DNA from: Nitrospirota bacterium
GTDB taxonomy: Bacteria; Nitrospirota; UBA9217
Assembly: GCA_963705595.1 (NCBI GenBank)
Contig: CAVPKD010000006.1
Coordinates: 321,781-385,780 of the forward strand
DNA length: 64,000 nt
Direction of reading: 5' to 3'
Every line of letters starts with the position of its first letter. Position 1 is the stretch's first letter. The notes under the pieces were generated by a model, which saw only the letters and a list, made by a program, of their open reading frames with translations, was not told the origin of the DNA and did no database searches. The translations under genes and the position numbers were made by a program. This document shows positions 2,602 through 57,237 of the stretch, piece after piece.

Positions 2602-3289
<688 letters not shown>

Positions 3290-3305
3290 TTTTTAGCTGG
3301 GAGAA

Positions 3306-3346
3306 AAAGTAAAGGCGGGATGCCATGCATCCCGCCTTTACTTTTG
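3306..3346 (+). terminator. Rho-independent terminator after adk
   Basis: Perfect 17-bp stem, 3306-3322 AAAGTAAAGGCGGGATG with 3328-3344 CATCCCGCCTTTACTTT, 5-nt loop, T-rich 3' side. Confidence 0.75.
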
Positions 3347-3676: not shown

Positions 3677-4303
3677 CTAGGTAGGCATCCTATCGAACTT
3701 TTCCCAGGAGACCGCAACAATATCTCCATCCGTGGGAACCTCTTTCAAATCGGGTTGTCTGAAGGGGGCAATTATCTTCTGCGAAGGGAAATATGAACCA
3801 CAACAAACAAGATTGAGAATTGCACCAGACTTAGGGCCGCGGGCCACTTCAAACTCTGAACAGGGAAACTTCTTGTTCTCTTCAAGATCAAACAAATGCT
3901 GACCCCGCAGAAAAAGGGTGCGACCATCCTCCAGATGAAGAAAATAACCGCCGCCTTCATCCTCCAATTCTTCAACTCTGATAGCCTTATTTGCATAGAA
4001 GCGAGTCACCTCGACGACACCGCCAGCGAGGTCATCCTGATAGGAGGTGAGTGAAGAACTGCGACACAATTTCAGGTAAGAGCGAATGCTGTAGACAAGC
4101 CAGGCAACAATGATAATTGAAAAAAGAACAGGGAAATATAGACTTAAGAAACCCAGAACGTGGTCAACGACATAAAGGATGCCGATACTGATGGCTGAGC
4201 ACAATGCCGCCATAAGCAAAGCACTGGCCAGAGTGACTGGATTCTCCGCCTTGGCTATCAAAGCTTGGCGTTCTTCGCTGGTTAATGGTCTTATCGTGGA
4301 CAT
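3677..4303 (-). CDS. Hypothetical membrane protein (2 predicted TM helices plus a C-terminal soluble domain)
   Basis: 208-aa ORF; hydrophobic stretches LASALLMAALCSAISIGILYVV and FPVLFSIIIVAWLVY; lies in a low-GC islet; no family recognised. Confidence 0.55.
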   Translation of the reverse strand: MSTIRPLTSEERQALIAKAENPVTLASALLMAALCSAISIGILYVVDHVLGFLSLYFPVLFSIIIVAWLVYSIRSYLKLCRSSSLTSYQDDLAGGVVEVTRFYANKAIRVEELEDEGGGYFLHLEDGRTLFLRGQHLFDLEENKKFPCSEFEVARGPKSGAILNLVCCGSYFPSQKIIAPFRQPDLKEVPTDGDIVAVSWEKFDRMPT

Positions 4304-4479: not shown

Positions 4480-5343
4480 CTATAATCTGACCGGCACGCC
4501 TCGTTCCTTCAAATATTCCTTCGCCTGCCTGATGGTGTATTCCCTGAAGTGGAAGATCGAGGCCGCGAGAGCGGCATCGGCCTTGCCCTTGGTGAATCCC
4601 GTCATAGATATGTTCGAGGTTCCCCACGCCGCCGGAGGCGATGACCGGGATCGAGACCGCTTCGGCCACGGCGCGCGTCAGCTCCAGGTCGTAGCCCGTT
4701 CTTCTGGCCGTCCTGGTCCATGCTCGTGAGCAGTATCTCTCCAGCGCCGTACTCTTCCATCTTCCGTGCCCAGGCGACGGCATCGATGCCCATGGGCTTT
4801 CTGCCGCCGTGGGTGTAGACTTCCCACTGCAGTGCGGAGTGCGGACTGTGGATTGCGGAATCGACTGAGGAAGAGCGACCTGTATTTCGGATCATCGGCC
4901 CATTTGAGCGGCGGCTTGAAATCCTTGTCATGTGCGACAACCTGCTTGGCGTCGATGGCGACGACGATGCACTGGCTGCCGAAGCGCATGGATGCCGCCT
5001 TGATGAACTCCGGGTCGTGGACCGCAGTGGTGTTGATCGAGACCTTGTCGCGCTCCGGCGAGCAGGAGATTTCGGATATCGTCGAGGATTCTTGATGCCG
5101 CCGCCCGACGGTGAGCGGCATGAAGACCTGCTCCGCAGTGCGGCGCACGATGTCGAGGATGATGCCGCGCTCTTCGTGGGAGGCGGTGATGTCCAGGAAC
5201 GTGAGTTCGTCCGCGCCCTGCTCGTCGTAGACCTTCGCGATCTCGACGGGGTCGCCGGCGTCGTGCAGGTTCACGAAGCTGACGCCTTTTACGACACGGC
5301 CGCCTTTCACGTCGAGGCAGGGTATGATTCGTTTGGTCAGCAT
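4480..5343 (-). pseudogene. hisF: Imidazole glycerol phosphate synthase cyclase subunit; about six +1 frame disruptions as assembled
   Basis: [20 protein letters not shown]...[10 protein letters not shown]...[20 protein letters not shown]...[19 protein letters not shown]...[21 protein letters not shown] is recovered only by joining three frames (ORFs 4678-5382, 4602-4940, 4418-4783, plus the last 40 codons in frame 0). Confidence 0.9.
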
Positions 5344-5524
5344 TGATATTTCTCTCATGTCTGGCGAAAAAATAAATATCAAAAGTACAGCAAAAGGGTC
5401 ATGCTACCGCAGAGCAGCAAAGGATCCAGAGTAAGACCGTTCTTATCTTGAGTATTTCTCCTTGCGAACGCTACGTGCTTTGCGAGAAACTATAGTGCCT
5501 GCTACCGGGCGCACCGGTTGTCGT

Positions 5525-6253
5525 TCAGTCTTGACAAACAGTGATGGCTTCCTTCAGATCGAGCGAGCCGCTGTAGATCGCCTTCCCGGTGATCACCCCG
5601 CTGACACCGGAGTATCGCACCGTAAGAAGGTTCTCAATGTCCTTCATCGTGTGAACGCCGCCCGAGGCAATGACCGGGATATGGAGCGCCTCGGCGAGCG
5701 CCTTGGTCGCCTCGATGTTCGGGCCCGAGAGCATGCCGTCGCGCTTGATGTCGGTGTAGATGATGGCGATGACGCCGTGGTCCTGCATCTGTTTCGCCAG
5801 GTCAATGGCCTTCACCTTGGTGACTTCGGCCCAGCCCTTGATCGCCACCAGGCCGTCCTTGGCATCGATGCCCACGATGATCTTTCCCGGGAATTTCTCG
5901 CAGGCTTCCCGTACAAAGGCAGGGTTCTCGATGGCCGCGGTGCCGAGAATGATCCGGTCGATGCCGATGGAGACCAAGGTGTCTGATCGTGGCCATGTCG
6001 CGGATGCCGCCGCCGACCTCGATCGGGATCTTGATGGCGGCGCGGATCGCCTTGATGGCATCGAGGTTCTTCGGCACGCCGGCAAAGGCGCCGTTCAGGT
6101 CCACGACATGCAGGAGCTCTGCACCTTGGGACTTCCCAGTGCTTTGCCGTGGTCGCGCGGGTCGTCGGAGTAGACCGTGGCCTTGTCCATGAGCCCCTGT
6201 TCGAGGCGGACGCACTTGCCTTCTTTTAGATCGATTGCGGGAATGATTAACAT
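5525..6253 (-). pseudogene. hisA: ProFAR isomerase; three +1 frame disruptions as assembled
   Basis: [20 protein letters not shown] (frame 1) -> TTAKHWE (0) -> [16 protein letters not shown]...IEVGGGIRD (2) -> [14 protein letters not shown]...VIASGGV...GVITGKAIY (1). Confidence 0.9.
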
Positions 6254-6272
6254 AAGAACCTCAAAACATATT

Positions 6273-6412
6273 TACCACAGAGGACGCAGACGGAATCCCA
6301 AAAGGCTTTAGAAAAAAAAGAAAGCTGCGCGCCTAGCTTAACGTCATCAAATATTCTTTTGCTTTAGTTCATTGTCGATTCGTTTATCTTCCTCCGCGCC
6401 CTCTGCGGTGAA
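6273..6412 (-). repeat. Intercistronic imperfect inverted repeat (hisA-hisH spacer) forming a long stem on the sense transcript
   Basis: 6274-6290 pairs with 6409-6393; that gives 17 consecutive pairs on the minus-strand RNA, 3 of them G-U, versus 3 A-C mismatches on the plus strand. Confidence 0.7.
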
Positions 6413-6413
6413 A

Positions 6414-7034
6414 TCAAGTTTTTTGCTCTCCGAACCGCTTCAGGATCGACAGCCCCAGCGCCTGGCTCTTCTCCGGATGGAACTGGACCGCGAAGATATT
6501 GTCCTTCCAGATGCTCGAGACGAACTCGATGCCATAGGGCGTTGTCGTTGCGATCACGCTCTTGTCTTCAGGCACCACATGGAACGAGTGCACGAAATAC
6601 ACATGGCTGTTGTCAGGAACATCCTGGAGCGCCGGGGCCTGCCGCTTGATTGATATCGAATTCCAGCCCATGTGCGGGATCTTGAGATCCGACGAATTCC
6701 GGCCCCTTGAACCGGATCACGCGGCCTTTGATGATGTCCAGCCCTTTCGAGATCCCGAACTCCTCGCTTTCGGTGAAGAGCAGCTGGAGGCCGAGACAGA
6801 TGCCGAGAAAGGGTTTGCCGGACCTGATGCTCCTGTGCACCGCATCGATGAGGCCGTACTCCTCGAGGTTTCGCATGCAGTCCGGGAAGGCGCCTACGCC
6901 GGGCAGGACGACCTTGTCGATGCGTTCAGGATCGTCTTTGCGTCGCTCGTGACCACGGCTTCGTGGCCCATGCGCTCGAAGCCCTTCTGAACGCTCCGCA
7001 GATTTCCCATTCCGTAGTCGATGATAGCGATCAT
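6414..7034 (-). pseudogene. hisH: Imidazole glycerol phosphate synthase glutamine amidotransferase subunit; one -1 and one +1 disruption
   Basis: MIAIIDYGMGNLRSVQKGFERMGHEAVV (frame 2) -> DKVVLPGVGAF...GKPFLGICLGLQLL (0) -> HMGWNSI...YFVHSF...AVQFHPEKS (2). Confidence 0.9.
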
Positions 7035-7047
7035 ATATTAATAAAAT

Positions 7048-7213
7048 TCGGGACGCAGATTTTCGCAGATGAACGTGGATGAAAATCAAATTCATGAGGG
7101 ATACGCATGGCACGGAAAAAGTAGATTAAGAAATTTGAGTCATATCCGATCTTCAGATTTATCCATGTCCAATGAATTCTGGTTTTCCGCATCAATCTGC
7201 GTTCACCAGCGTC
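7048..7213 (-). repeat. Intercistronic imperfect inverted repeat (hisH-hisB spacer), arms of about 45 nt
   Basis: 7048-7095 GGGACGCAGATTTTCGCAGATGAACGTGGATGAAAATCAAATTCAT versus the reverse complement of 7158-7213, GGACGCTGGTGAACGCAGATTGATGCGGAAAACCAGAATTCAT (about 70% by eye). Confidence 0.55.
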
Positions 7214-7223
7214 CAATGATATC

Positions 7224-7815
7224 TCAGATCTTTCCCTTCGTCGAGAGCACGCCCTTGATCCTCGGATCGAGGCTCGTGGCCTGGTCCAGGGCGCGGCCGA
7301 AGGCCTTGAAGATGGCTTCGAGCATGTGGTGGACGTCGCGGCCGTAAAGGAGGCGGATATGCAGGTTCATGCCCAGCATGGTTCACAACGGACTGAAAGA
7401 AGTCTTCTGCAAGTCCGGGGTCGAAGTCCTTGAGCTTGTACTTCTTCGGCAGTTCCACCTGGTACGCTAGGTAGGGCCTGCCGGACAGGTCCATCACCAC
7501 CTGCGCCAGGGTCTCGTCCATGGGCACGGTCACGTCTCCGTATCGGCGGATGCCTTTGCTGTCACCGAGAGCTTTTTTGAGCGCCTGGCCGAAGGCGATG
7601 CCCAGGTCCTCGACCGTGTGGTGGTCATCGATCTCCGTATCGCCCTTGGCCTTGATCGTGAGGTCGAAGAAGCCGTGCTTGGCAATGTGGGAGAACATGT
7701 GGTCCATGAACGGTACGGATGTCTTGATGTTGTACGCGCCCGTGCCGTCGAGGTTCAAGGATATCTTGATGTCCGTCTCTTTGGTCTTACGTTCGATCGT
7801 CGCTTTGCGGGGCAT
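7224..7815 (-). pseudogene. hisB: Imidazoleglycerol-phosphate dehydratase; one +1 disruption (GG->GGG near 7372-7376)
   Basis: [26 protein letters not shown]...[14 protein letters not shown]...SVVNHAG, then [28 protein letters not shown]...STKGKI* in the next frame. Confidence 0.9.
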
Positions 7816-9043: not shown

Positions 9044-9139
9044 ATGAACACGAATTGCACGAATTAGTCGAATATCACGAAGGGGGAAAGGAGTTTTATC
9101 CATGCTCTTCGTCCTTTTCGTGTCATTCGTAATTAAGGG
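9044..9139. repeat. Inverted repeat built from CACGAA-type short direct repeats (hisC / DUF255 divergent spacer)
   Basis: 9044-9085 ATGAACACGAATTGCACGAATTAGTCGAATATCACGAAGGG versus 9105-9139 CTCTTCGTCCTTTTCGTGTCATTCGTAATTAAGGG. Confidence 0.5.
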
Positions 9140-9231
9140 ATTGAGATTTTTTCTACCTTTTGACGAGAATTTGAATCGCGAATTTCTAACACTCGTTGTT
9201 TTCTTGTATGGAAATGAGGTATCATGAGTGC

Positions 9232-17443: not shown

Positions 17444-17585
17444 CTACCACAGAGGCACGGAGACAACCATGAGTGAGGCTGAACTAACGGGATTAAAAAA
17501 AAGGATTGAAATCCGATCTTATCCTGTTCATCCTGTAAAGAACGAACTTTATAATTTCTCTGTACCTCAGTGCCTCCGCGGTTAG
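17444..17585 (-). repeat. Intercistronic imperfect inverted repeat (DUF1385-prfA spacer), sense-strand specific
   Basis: 17447-17465 pairs with 17581-17563; on the minus-strand RNA 18 of 19 positions pair, 4 of them G-U, versus 5 mismatches on the plus strand. Confidence 0.7.
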
Positions 17586-17602: not shown

Positions 17603-17630
17603 ACAAAAAAACCCCGCTTCAGCGGGGTTC
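17603..17630 (-). terminator. Hairpin plus U-tract overlapping the DUF1385 stop codon
   Basis: Minus strand reads GAACCCCGC TGAA GCGGGGTTTTTTTTG; the stop TGA sits in the loop. Confidence 0.55.
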
Positions 17631-18529
17631 CATCGCAAGGGCTTCGTTCAGCGCCCTGATGGCGACCTCTATTTGGTCATCCGACGGTTCTCGCGTCGTG
17701 AGGCGCTGAAGCCAGAGTCCCGGCAGCATCAGAGCCTCGATAAGGGGATGTCCCGCGCTTCTTCGCGCTGTACTTGATGAATTCGTACCCCAGCCCGGCG
17801 ATCACCGGCAGCAGTACGATCCGCGAAAGGCCTTTTGCCCAGAGGGGCCAGCTGCCCGGGATGAGCGAGAACAGGATGATGGAAAGCGCTATCACCGCGA
17901 GCAGGAAGCTCGTGCCGCAGCGCGGGTGGATGCAGGAGTAGGGTCTCGCGTTCTGGACCGTAAGCTCGACTCCGGCCTCGTAGGCTGCGATGGCCTTGTG
18001 CTCGGCCCCGTGGTACTCGAAGACCCGGCGGATGTCCTTCATGAACGAGATGCCGGATACATATCCCAGGAACAGCGCAACCCGGAGGGCACCGTCCGTG
18101 AGATTGAAGAGGATGCTGTTCCTGCTGACGGTATCGTATTTTGCGCCGAGCAGGTTGGTGAGCAGGAGAGGGAGCGCCAGGAAGAGTCCCGAGAGCGAAG
18201 GCGAGCGCCACGAATCATGGTCCCCGCCATGGCGAGAGGGCTGATCTCTTCTTTCTTTCCGTCGTCGCTCTTCGAGCGCTTCGTTCGCCGAGAAATTGAG
18301 CGCCCGTATTCCGAGCCACATCGCTTCGAAGAGCGCTGCCGAGCCGCGGATGATTTTTTTCTTCAGCAGGGGAAACCGTTCTCCGAGCGGCGTGAGCAGT
18401 TGCGTGAGTACTGCGATCTCTGCGCCGGGTTTGCCGCCTTTGCGCACGGCTACGGTGAAAGACGTGCGGTGAGCGCATCATCACGCCTTCGAGCACTGCC
18501 TGGCCACCTATGGTTAATTTTTCTGACAA
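17619..18529 (-). pseudogene. DUF1385 (YqhQ-like) membrane protein; about five +1 disruptions
   Basis: MSEKLTIGGQAVLEGVMMRSP..., IIRGSAALFEAMWLGIRALNFSA..., FEYHGAEHKAI..., IHPRCGTSF...; conserved position between rpmE and prfA. Confidence 0.75.
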
Positions 18530-57143: not shown

Positions 57144-57147
57144 ATCA

Positions 57148-57237
57148 TTTCGGATTGTGGATCGGGAATTAGAGAATAAAAATTAAATAGTGCTACGATT
57201 TCAGGTTTAATCCTCACTCCGTACTCCGCAATTCAAA
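57148..57237 (+). repeat. Imperfect inverted repeat downstream of the NHL gene, plus-strand specific
   Basis: 57152-57161 pairs with 57234-57225; 10 consecutive pairs on the plus-strand RNA including 2 G-U (57153/57233, 57158/57228). Confidence 0.55.

Follow-up and report, generated by a model that had tools for sequence, protein, structure and literature searches.

A stem between hisH and hisA in a Nitrospirota genome is probably a copy of a dispersed REP-like family of intergenic inverted repeats

The histidine biosynthesis genes hisC-hisB-hisH-hisA-hisF of a Nitrospirota bacterium (GTDB lineage UBA9217) lie on the minus strand at 4.4-9.0 kb of a 64,000-nucleotide stretch of DNA (assembly GCA_963705595.1, contig CAVPKD010000006.1, positions 321,781 to 385,780), which was analysed as a whole and is called the window in the following. 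In the rest of the window, neighbouring genes that point the same way abut or overlap, unlike the his genes, which are separated by spacers. The 160-nt spacer between hisH and hisA contains an inverted repeat that pairs into a long stem on the mRNA strand, with three G-U pairs that turn into A-C mismatches on the other strand. An initial annotation, made from the sequence, took this asymmetry as the signature of selection on RNA structure. The locus thereby raises the question whether the stem is indeed maintained as a structure of the his mRNA. Our analysis revealed that the stem is real. It is, however, probably one member of a family of inverted repeats which is dispersed over intergenic regions, resembles repetitive extragenic palindromic (REP) elements, is kept as DNA, folds when it is transcribed and then exerts REP-like effects on the mRNA.

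The plus strand reads ACCACAGAGGACGCAGA at positions 6274-6290 and TCCGCGCCCTCTGCGGT at positions 6393-6409. On the minus (mRNA) strand, 6409-6393 (ACCGCAGAGGGCGCGGA) pairs with 6290-6274 (UCUGCGUCCUCUGUGGU) over 17 contiguous pairs, three of which are G-U (6277/6406, 6284/6399 and 6288/6395) and become A-C on the plus strand. Reading the sequence confirmed the hisH and hisA flanks, the helix and all three G-U positions of the initial annotation, and also its enclosed AT-rich sequence of about 100 nt (93-102 nt). RNAfold added four further pairs past a bulged C (6291), resulting in 21 pairs between 6389-6409 and 6274-6295. The 5′ arm of the window element is composed of the units CGCAGAGG-G and CGCGGAGG-A followed by a partial unit, and the 3′ arm of their complements (Table 1). 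The first paired base of the 5′ arm is located 4 nt past the hisH stop codon, and the 3′ arm ends 11 nt ahead of the Shine-Dalgarno sequence of hisA. When both strands were folded with RNAfold, the mRNA strand was the more stable one in the window copy, with a minimum free energy (MFE) of -47.2 kcal/mol (z-score -2.29; 3 of 200 shuffles were as stable) versus -36.3 kcal/mol (z-score -1.70) for the plus strand. On the plus strand the helix had been described as falling apart; it is weakened but persists with three interruptions. Folding with DNA parameters gave -21.9 (z-score -1.98) for the minus strand versus -14.7 (z-score 0.09) for the plus strand. Searches against Rfam 15 returned no match at the gathering threshold in the whole window and no match at E<=1 in the region 5300-7300.

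How exceptional is such a stem? A first scan of the whole window with RNALfold and a loose helix filter resulted in hundreds of structures and was replaced by explicit helix scans. Runs of at least 17 pairs (G-U allowed, within 330 nt) are expected about 0.75 times per strand per 64-kb window (an estimate from 0.375^n), and just three loci of the window reach this length. For runs of at least 14 pairs, 18 and 12 were counted on the two strands, which is about the chance rate. The strand-symmetric score of the hisH-hisA spacer (14.0) was not reached by any of 30 dinucleotide shuffles (mean 8.2, maximum 10.0). Taken alone the stem is suggestive and not decisive, and it is the comparative evidence that decides.

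For this comparison a search with a HisA fragment yielded 17 Nitrospirota species genomes (77-91% identity), 63 genomes of Desulfuromonadota and others, and about 40 metagenome contigs of the Nitrospirota clade; many of the recovered genomes are 'MFD' metagenome-assembled genomes. Individual loci are referred to by L numbers. The Nitrospirota hisH-hisA set comprised 58 spacers, 18 from genomes and 40 from metagenome loci. The 5′ arm of the window element is homologous to arms of L006, L002, L011, L014 and L087, and since homologous arms occupy the same spacer in relatives, the stem is not a chance match. An inverted repeat that arose fortuitously in this AT-rich spacer and was perhaps sharpened by wrong base calls would agree with the chance rate of runs of at least 14 pairs and with the 14 insertions that hisB, hisH, hisA and hisF show relative to L087. 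Given the homologous arms at the same place in five loci, the spacer score beyond all shuffles and the recurrence of the unit flavour at 17446-17582, we regard this explanation as essentially refuted.

The hisH-hisA spacer measured 81-267 nt in the 18 Nitrospirota genomes and was no shorter than about 42 nt in any of the 40 metagenome loci. In nearly all of these spacers we found two inverted arrays of short tandem units, with two to four units per array, and in most of the 18 genomes the arrays are visible by eye. The best strand-symmetric hairpin exceeded all 30 shuffles in 15 of the 18 genome spacers and exceeded the shuffles in 24 of 36 further non-redundant metagenome spacers. Pairing in this spacer, the lack of which in related genomes would have counted against the initial annotation, is present across the clade. 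The units occur in four main flavours (Table 1) and some additional ones, and at a given gene junction one flavour takes the place of another. In relatives the arms are separated by 5 to about 160 nt, compared to 93-102 nt in the window. The UUUUGAGGUU..AUG string at the ribosome-binding region of hisA is kept among relatives and lies outside the element. Long spacers are a feature of all four his junctions in the 18 Nitrospirota genomes (medians 98-176 nt, shortest 52 nt), many of them with arrays. Median lengths in the 63 other genomes were -1 to 37 nt, the Desulfuromonadota being mostly tight. About one third of the Desulfuromonadota spacers are longer than 60 nt, and the paired-array architecture was found among these (L018, L027, L030, L039, L046, L055, L059, L060, L065, L072 and L079).

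Other repeats were also observed at the hisH-hisA junction. The short spacers of L089 and L094 (about 58 and 42 nt) carry a tandem self-complementary unit, GCTTGCAA/GCTTGCAAGC, and no paired arrays, which is a different route to a hairpin at this junction. In four genomes of Geomonas and Geobacter (L019, L022, L032 and L034) the junction is occupied by another, GC-rich palindromic repeat, CCCTCCCCCGGAGGGGGAGGGTTAGGGAGGGGG ... CCCCCACCCAGCCTCCCCCCTCCGGGG. The spacer of a sister species (L020) is 17 nt long and lacks this repeat.

Whether the arms prefer the transcribed strand was assessed with a hairpin score that is blind to the strand (Watson-Crick pairs +1, either transition mismatch -0.5, transversions -1.5). 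Gene calls based on open reading frames (ORFs) gave wrong strands because the his genes are frameshifted, and a codon-usage strand profile was used instead. This profile is doubtful for GC-rich Desulfuromonadota, where 35 hairpins were called minus/minus and the his genes are actually on the plus strand, and that census was dropped. The test was limited to spacers between his genes mapped by tblastn, for which the sense strand is certain. The main set consisted of 76 his-spacer hairpins of known sense that beat their shuffles, from 81 genomes. Their mRNA strands showed 95 G-U versus 130 A-C (binomial p 0.023), a bias opposite to that of the RNA hypothesis, and according to RNAfold the mRNA strand was more stable in 29 and less stable in 46 (Wilcoxon p 0.053). 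A second and independent set, 33 hairpins from metagenomes, showed 51 G-U versus 43 A-C, with the mRNA strand being better in 17 versus 15. In the window, a hand-picked tally of the clearest family members gave a G-U to A-C ratio of about 9:4, which is not significant, and an automated census gave 11 versus 13. On the basis of this census a sense-strand G-U bias specific to the window genome was rejected. An intrinsic polarity of the elements, caused by single-stranded DNA transposition or strand-biased deamination, was likewise rejected, as the direction of mismatches was not overdispersed: in 4 of 38 elements with at least three mismatches all of them pointed one way, versus 5.2 expected.

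For the window copy itself, the probability of finding three G-U among three such pairs is about 0.07-0.12. L006, which has the closest homologous arms, shows two A-C and one G-U on the mRNA strand and folds better as antisense (-55.1) than as sense (-46.5). The G-U pair 6277/6406 of the window is A-C in L006, G-C in L002 and L011, and A-U in L014, L013 and L017. We infer that the three G-U pairs of the window copy are sampling noise among the transition differences between repeat units. More generally, a few G-U pairs in one hairpin are not evidence of selection at the RNA level when the arms are degenerate units that vary by transitions.

An orthologue of the whole region is available in the metagenome contig L087, which shares 89.6% identity with the window over a length of 5.5 kb and carries the same element including its interior. 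The 5′ arm is 78.6% identical between the two, the interior 85.7% and the 3′ arm 92.6%; at the third codon positions of hisH and hisA the identity is 0.78-0.79, close to that of the 5′ arm. Seven substitutions fall into the L087 stem. Two of them convert G-U pairs of the window into G-C and A-U, one converts A-U into G-U, and the remaining four break pairs. None of the four pair-breaking changes is compensated, so that the compensatory changes which the initial annotation suggested looking for did not appear in the orthologue. The L087 spacer folds no better than its shuffles (z-score -1.0 for sense, -0.6 for antisense). As the window arm is similar to the 5′ arms of L006 and L002, the decayed arm is that of L087. 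Judged from the sequences, the constraint on the element sequence appears relaxed versus L087.

Taken as a structure selected on the his mRNA strand, the stem would serve between the cistrons as a stabiliser or as a hairpin for processing and give the hisC-B-H and hisA-F segments different stabilities, with G-U pairs being tolerated because nothing but the RNA would matter. We consider this unlikely. The folding of the window copy on the mRNA strand, the presence of a hairpin at the hisH-hisA junction across the clade and the higher stability of the sense strand in 12 of 18 hisH-hisA spacers folded with their flanks all agree with such a selection, but the strand-symmetric counts in both sets are null or reversed, the asymmetry is inverted in L006, and the L087 stem decays uncompensated. 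In addition, the arms are often of unequal unit length (for example in L002), which results in regular bulges. The element type is also not specific to the his mRNA because it occurs in a divergent promoter region (9047-9132) and by a terminator-like hairpin (17446-17582) as well. With these copies, the counts of 95:130 and 51:43 and the two relatives, the G-U/A-C asymmetry did not hold up as a signature of RNA selection.

What then maintains the stem? Several observations point to processes at the DNA level. Unit arrays are about fourfold enriched in the window (11 versus 2.6 expected from shuffles), which contains at least six paired arrays in 64 kb, and two to four paired arrays were found per 8-kb locus in relatives. 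L013 harbors paralogous copies in its hisC-hisB and hisH-hisA spacers, with about 35 nt and about 22 nt of the arms being nearly identical, and A-C mismatches are common to both copies. A second hairpin module is nested in the interior of the first in L002, L006, L011, L030 and L060; in L002, L006 and L011 it takes the loop position of the window element. L117 possesses the outer hairpin of L011 and L002 and lacks exactly the inner CACGAAGG module of 153 nt. This presence/absence block consists of the inner CACGAAGG hairpin plus about 30-35 nt on each side, and the outer hairpin is collinear. An empty site for the outer element was not found among the Nitrospirota hisH-hisA spacers. Within 28 outer units the two arms covary, as 89.3% of cells are paired versus 83.9% in shuffles, and changes on both sides affect 32 cells versus 17.2 in shuffles; none of 500 shuffles reached either value. 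Pair 4-29, for example, alternates between G-C (15), A-U (10) and G-U (3). The covariation of the arms is symmetric between the strands. Because the element is multi-copy, swaps flavours, is nested, is duplicated together with its mismatches and decays in the orthologue, we conclude that it is kept and spread as a DNA inverted repeat. The data indicate that the element is propagated and maintained in this form without preference for the transcribed strand.

Arrays of this kind could also be double-stranded DNA sites for a nucleoid-associated protein or global regulator that binds as a symmetric oligomer or by DNA looping, in which case RNA folding would be incidental. Conservation is stronger for the unit motif and its tandem arrangement than for exact complementarity, and unit spacing often differs between the arms (9-9-9 versus 8-8-10 nt in L002), which produces a regularly bulged helix. 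The wide range of inter-arm distances, the absence of a strand bias and the occurrence in all types of intergenic regions are in line with such a role, which has moreover been hypothesized for the same architecture, with IHF/HU as the binding proteins (Aklujkar et al. 2009, PMC2700814). On the other hand, many flavours coexist and replace one another, which would require many proteins or a very loose recognition, and the covariation of arm flavours fits inverted duplication or a hairpin equally well. Protein binding is in our view not a likely explanation.

The closest published description of the window element are the class 2 paired TCTCCGTS sites of Geobacter metallireducens. Aklujkar et al. 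(BMC Microbiol 9:109) described 24, 21 and 8 pairs of sites of classes 1-3 in this genome as 'predicted global regulator binding sites', consisting of 3-5 tandem hepta- or octanucleotides and located in intergenic regions as pairs on opposite strands at variable distance. Class 2 has the consensus TCTCCGTS[Y] in three copies and class 3 MTYCTGA in five copies, with one class 3 pair located between proB and proA. Insertion sequence (IS) elements lay at a constant distance from class 1 sites, and the binding of IHF/HU was a guess of the authors without experiments. The G. metallireducens sites share with the window element the tandem 7-9-nt units, the inverted pairing, the variable distance and the multi-copy intergenic occurrence. 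At the level of consensus strings only, the reverse complement of class 2, SACGGAGA, is exactly the CACGGAGA unit of L013 and matches the window units CGCGGAGG and CGCAGAGG at 6 of 8 and 5 of 8 positions, and the reverse complement of class 3, TCAGRAK, equals a flavour in L001, L008 and L065. The description of G. metallireducens covers one Desulfuromonadota genome and contains no hairpin or RNA reading and no flavour turnover or nesting. A literature search for descriptions of such elements in Nitrospirota gave nothing specific, and a full-text search for the repeat strings returned unrelated eukaryotic primer matches only.

A REP element is one palindrome, 20-40 nt long, whose loop is short and whose conserved GTAG-type head is recognised by a RAYT transposase. 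REP and BIME sequences resemble the window family in being multi-copy, extragenic, imperfect palindromes that are often located between cistrons or behind stop codons and are transcribed within operons. They are furthermore targets of IS insertion and differ in sequence between species at conserved sites. Unlike REP, the arms of the window family are tandem arrays and lie up to about 160 nt apart. The GTAG head was not found on the arms, which start with (T)TT(C)ACC or GCC and are direct-repeat arrays instead of palindromes. REPINs (Bertels and Rainey 2011, PMC3116915) are similar in that two inverted modules and a spacer form one long hairpin, and in that they are dispersed and evolve within the genome with mismatches common to copies; features of their own are palindromic REP arms, a tight and conserved spacing and mobilisation by RAYT. 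The cyanobacterial STRR and the Beggiatoaceae TAACTGA repeats (MacGregor 2015, PMC4679880) are intergenic tandem 7-nt units that likewise span lineages, occur near start codons and are without known function. They differ in being direct repeats (one indirect among 170 sets, PMC4679880) and consequently yield no hairpins. Intrinsic terminators and RNase III hairpins share with the window element a stable helix within the transcript, and about 21 bp is in principle long enough for a double-strand RNase. All in all, the element is most likely a REP-like intergenic repeat and not a his-specific structured RNA.

On the basis of these comparisons we propose the following model for the REP-like element. 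Each arm would be built of two to four tandem units of 8-9 nt (here CGCAGAGG / CGCGGAGG; general form C-R-C-N-R-A-K), the arms facing each other over an interior of variable length (5 to about 160 nt). Because the element presumably sits inside the his transcription unit, its arms are expected to fold in the his mRNA, where they would form a helix of about 21 bp. REP hairpins in mRNA reportedly stabilise the upstream mRNA, and a REP near a stop codon is said to be able to lower translation of the upstream gene. By analogy, the helix may act as a barrier to 3′-5′ exonucleases and could possibly serve as a partial terminator or as a site for a double-strand RNase. It might also uncouple the expression of hisH from that of hisA by breaking translational coupling.

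A more specific transcriptional role would be that of an internal terminator, which ends the hisC-B-H transcript, combined with a promoter in the AT-rich interior, which restarts transcription for hisA-F. Inside the loop there is a weak sigma-70-like match, TCGACA-17-AATATT (6378-6350, minus strand), whose L087 equivalent TTGACA-17-AATATT has a perfect -35 box, and AAAUUUUUUUU follows the 3′ arm of L002 and L006. However, the match comprises 9 of 12 positions in AT-rich sequence, and a regional promoter scan gave 8 versus 3.5 +/- 2.0, which was judged not above expectation. No terminator was called at the element by the scan, and unlike in an intrinsic terminator, which has a GC-rich stem, a loop of 3-8 nt and a U-tract directly 3′ of the stem, the loop measures 93 nt and the U-tract in the tail AAAUAUGUUUUG is interrupted. 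The T-run moreover belongs to the conserved ribosome-binding region of hisA and is present where the hairpin differs (L003). We consider this arrangement very unlikely.

Some of our results weigh against a REP-like repeat that is kept as DNA. In the outermost unit of 28 hisH-hisA hairpins, mRNA-strand G-U outnumbered A-C by 24 to 13 (p about 0.1, not significant), and both CRCAGAGG-flavour copies in the window are more stable when folded on the sense strand of their neighbouring genes; for the copy at 17446-17582 the values are -51.0 (z-score -5.1) on the minus versus -40.1 (z-score -2.8) on the plus strand. Both findings are in favor of selection on the transcribed strand. A clear target-site duplication, such as would mark a MITE, was not found at the borders of the 153-nt inner module when L011 and L002 were compared to L117. 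The window assembly contains many single-base insertions, so single bases are open to doubt. Finally, occupancy at hisH-hisA is complete among the Nitrospirota loci, with none of the 58 spacers being shorter than about 42 nt and most containing arrays. This looks more like retained function than like a purely selfish insert, and the occupation of all his junctions throughout the clade is a hint that a hairpin as such, though not its sequence, may be retained for a REP-like role.

In a bolder version of this thought, the arrays would be uncharacterised self-propagating hairpin modules across Nitrospirota and Desulfuromonadota that have become a fixed 'punctuation' at every boundary between his cistrons (58 of 58 at hisH-hisA, with flavour turnover) and set cistron expression as RNase or exonuclease-barrier sites. 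We put this forward as a speculation that is rather unlikely to be correct. As to the broader meaning of the REP-like family, tandem-unit inverted arrays occur at most or all his junctions examined in the Nitrospirota clade and in about one third of the long Desulfuromonadota spacers, and have been noted once, in 2009. They lengthen operon spacers, would break translational coupling and would put stable helices of 20-35 bp into polycistronic mRNAs, with a probable influence on how operons are expressed and mRNAs decay in these uncultured lineages. In genome scans they could be mistaken for riboswitches, small RNAs or terminators.

Table 1. Features of the hisH-hisA element, further family members in the window and unit flavours at the hisH-hisA junction. 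Positions refer to the window.
Feature	Position	Strand	Remarks
5′ arm, mRNA sense (ACCGCAGAGGGCGCGGAGGAA)	6389-6409	minus	2-3 tandem CRCRGAGG-type units; in RNAfold MFE and centroid structures
3′ arm, mRNA sense (UUCC-G-UCUGCGUCCUCUGUGGU)	6274-6295	minus	17 contiguous pairs plus 4 beyond the bulge at 6291
AT-rich interior (loop)	6296-6388	minus	93 nt; identity to the L087 loop in the text
hisH stop codon (TGA)	6414-6416	minus	from the sequence
hisA ribosome-binding region	6251-6262	minus	GAGG 6259-6262, ATG 6251-6253
Member in the hisB-hisH spacer, arms GGACGCTGGTGAACGCAGATTGATGCGGAAAA and TTTTCATCCACGTTCATCTGCGAAAATCTGCGTCC	7051-7214	minus	CGCAGAT flavour; loop about 100 nt; kept in L087
Member in the hisA-hisF spacer, degenerate	5403-5489	minus	CGCAAAG flavour; better preserved in L002, L004, L016 and L006
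Second copy of the CRCAGAGG/CACGGAGA flavour	17446-17582		adjoins an intrinsic terminator-like hairpin
CACGAAT/CACGAAG flavour member	9047-9132		divergent region between hisC (minus) and an ORF starting at 9196 (plus)
CGGAKT flavour member	57147-57232	plus	begins 4 nt past the stop codon of a 1336-aa ORF
Unit flavour CRCAGAGG or CACGGAGA			window, L002, L006, L011, L013, L014, L017, L083, L090, L092, L104-106, L116, L118-119
Unit flavour CACGAAGG			L004, L008, L010, L088, L097, L122, L126
Unit flavour GGGTCCAGTAGC			L001, L007, L009, L103, L110, L111
Unit flavour CGCAAAGG			L016, L093, L100

Three further observations were made in the window. Compared to the orthologue L087, the region 4483-7815 shows 14 frameshifting insertions, one in hisB, two in hisH (one of them of 2 nt), five in hisA and six in hisF. 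All 14 events are insertions in the window and none is located in a homopolymer; hisC and a 208-aa ORF (3677-4303) are free of them. Either the assembly has errors of the insertion type in GC-rich segments, or the his operon is pseudogenised.

The terminator-like hairpin mentioned above, GGAACCCCGCTGAAGCGGGGTTTTTTTG, is located at 17605-17640 on the minus strand just past a minus-strand ORF that ends at 17677, and in minus sense it lies directly upstream of the repeat element at 17446-17582. Another hairpin, at 3305-3345, is a perfect 19-bp helix of AAAAGTAAAGGCGGGATGC/GCATCCCGCCTTTACTTTT with a loop of 3 nt, flanked on either side by A/T runs. It resembles a bidirectional intrinsic terminator for an adenylate-kinase-like ORF that ends at 3289, and its core AAAGGCGGGATG is kept in L004 (2808-2851), L006 (7644-7675), L010 (7039-7072) and L012 (7529-7570).

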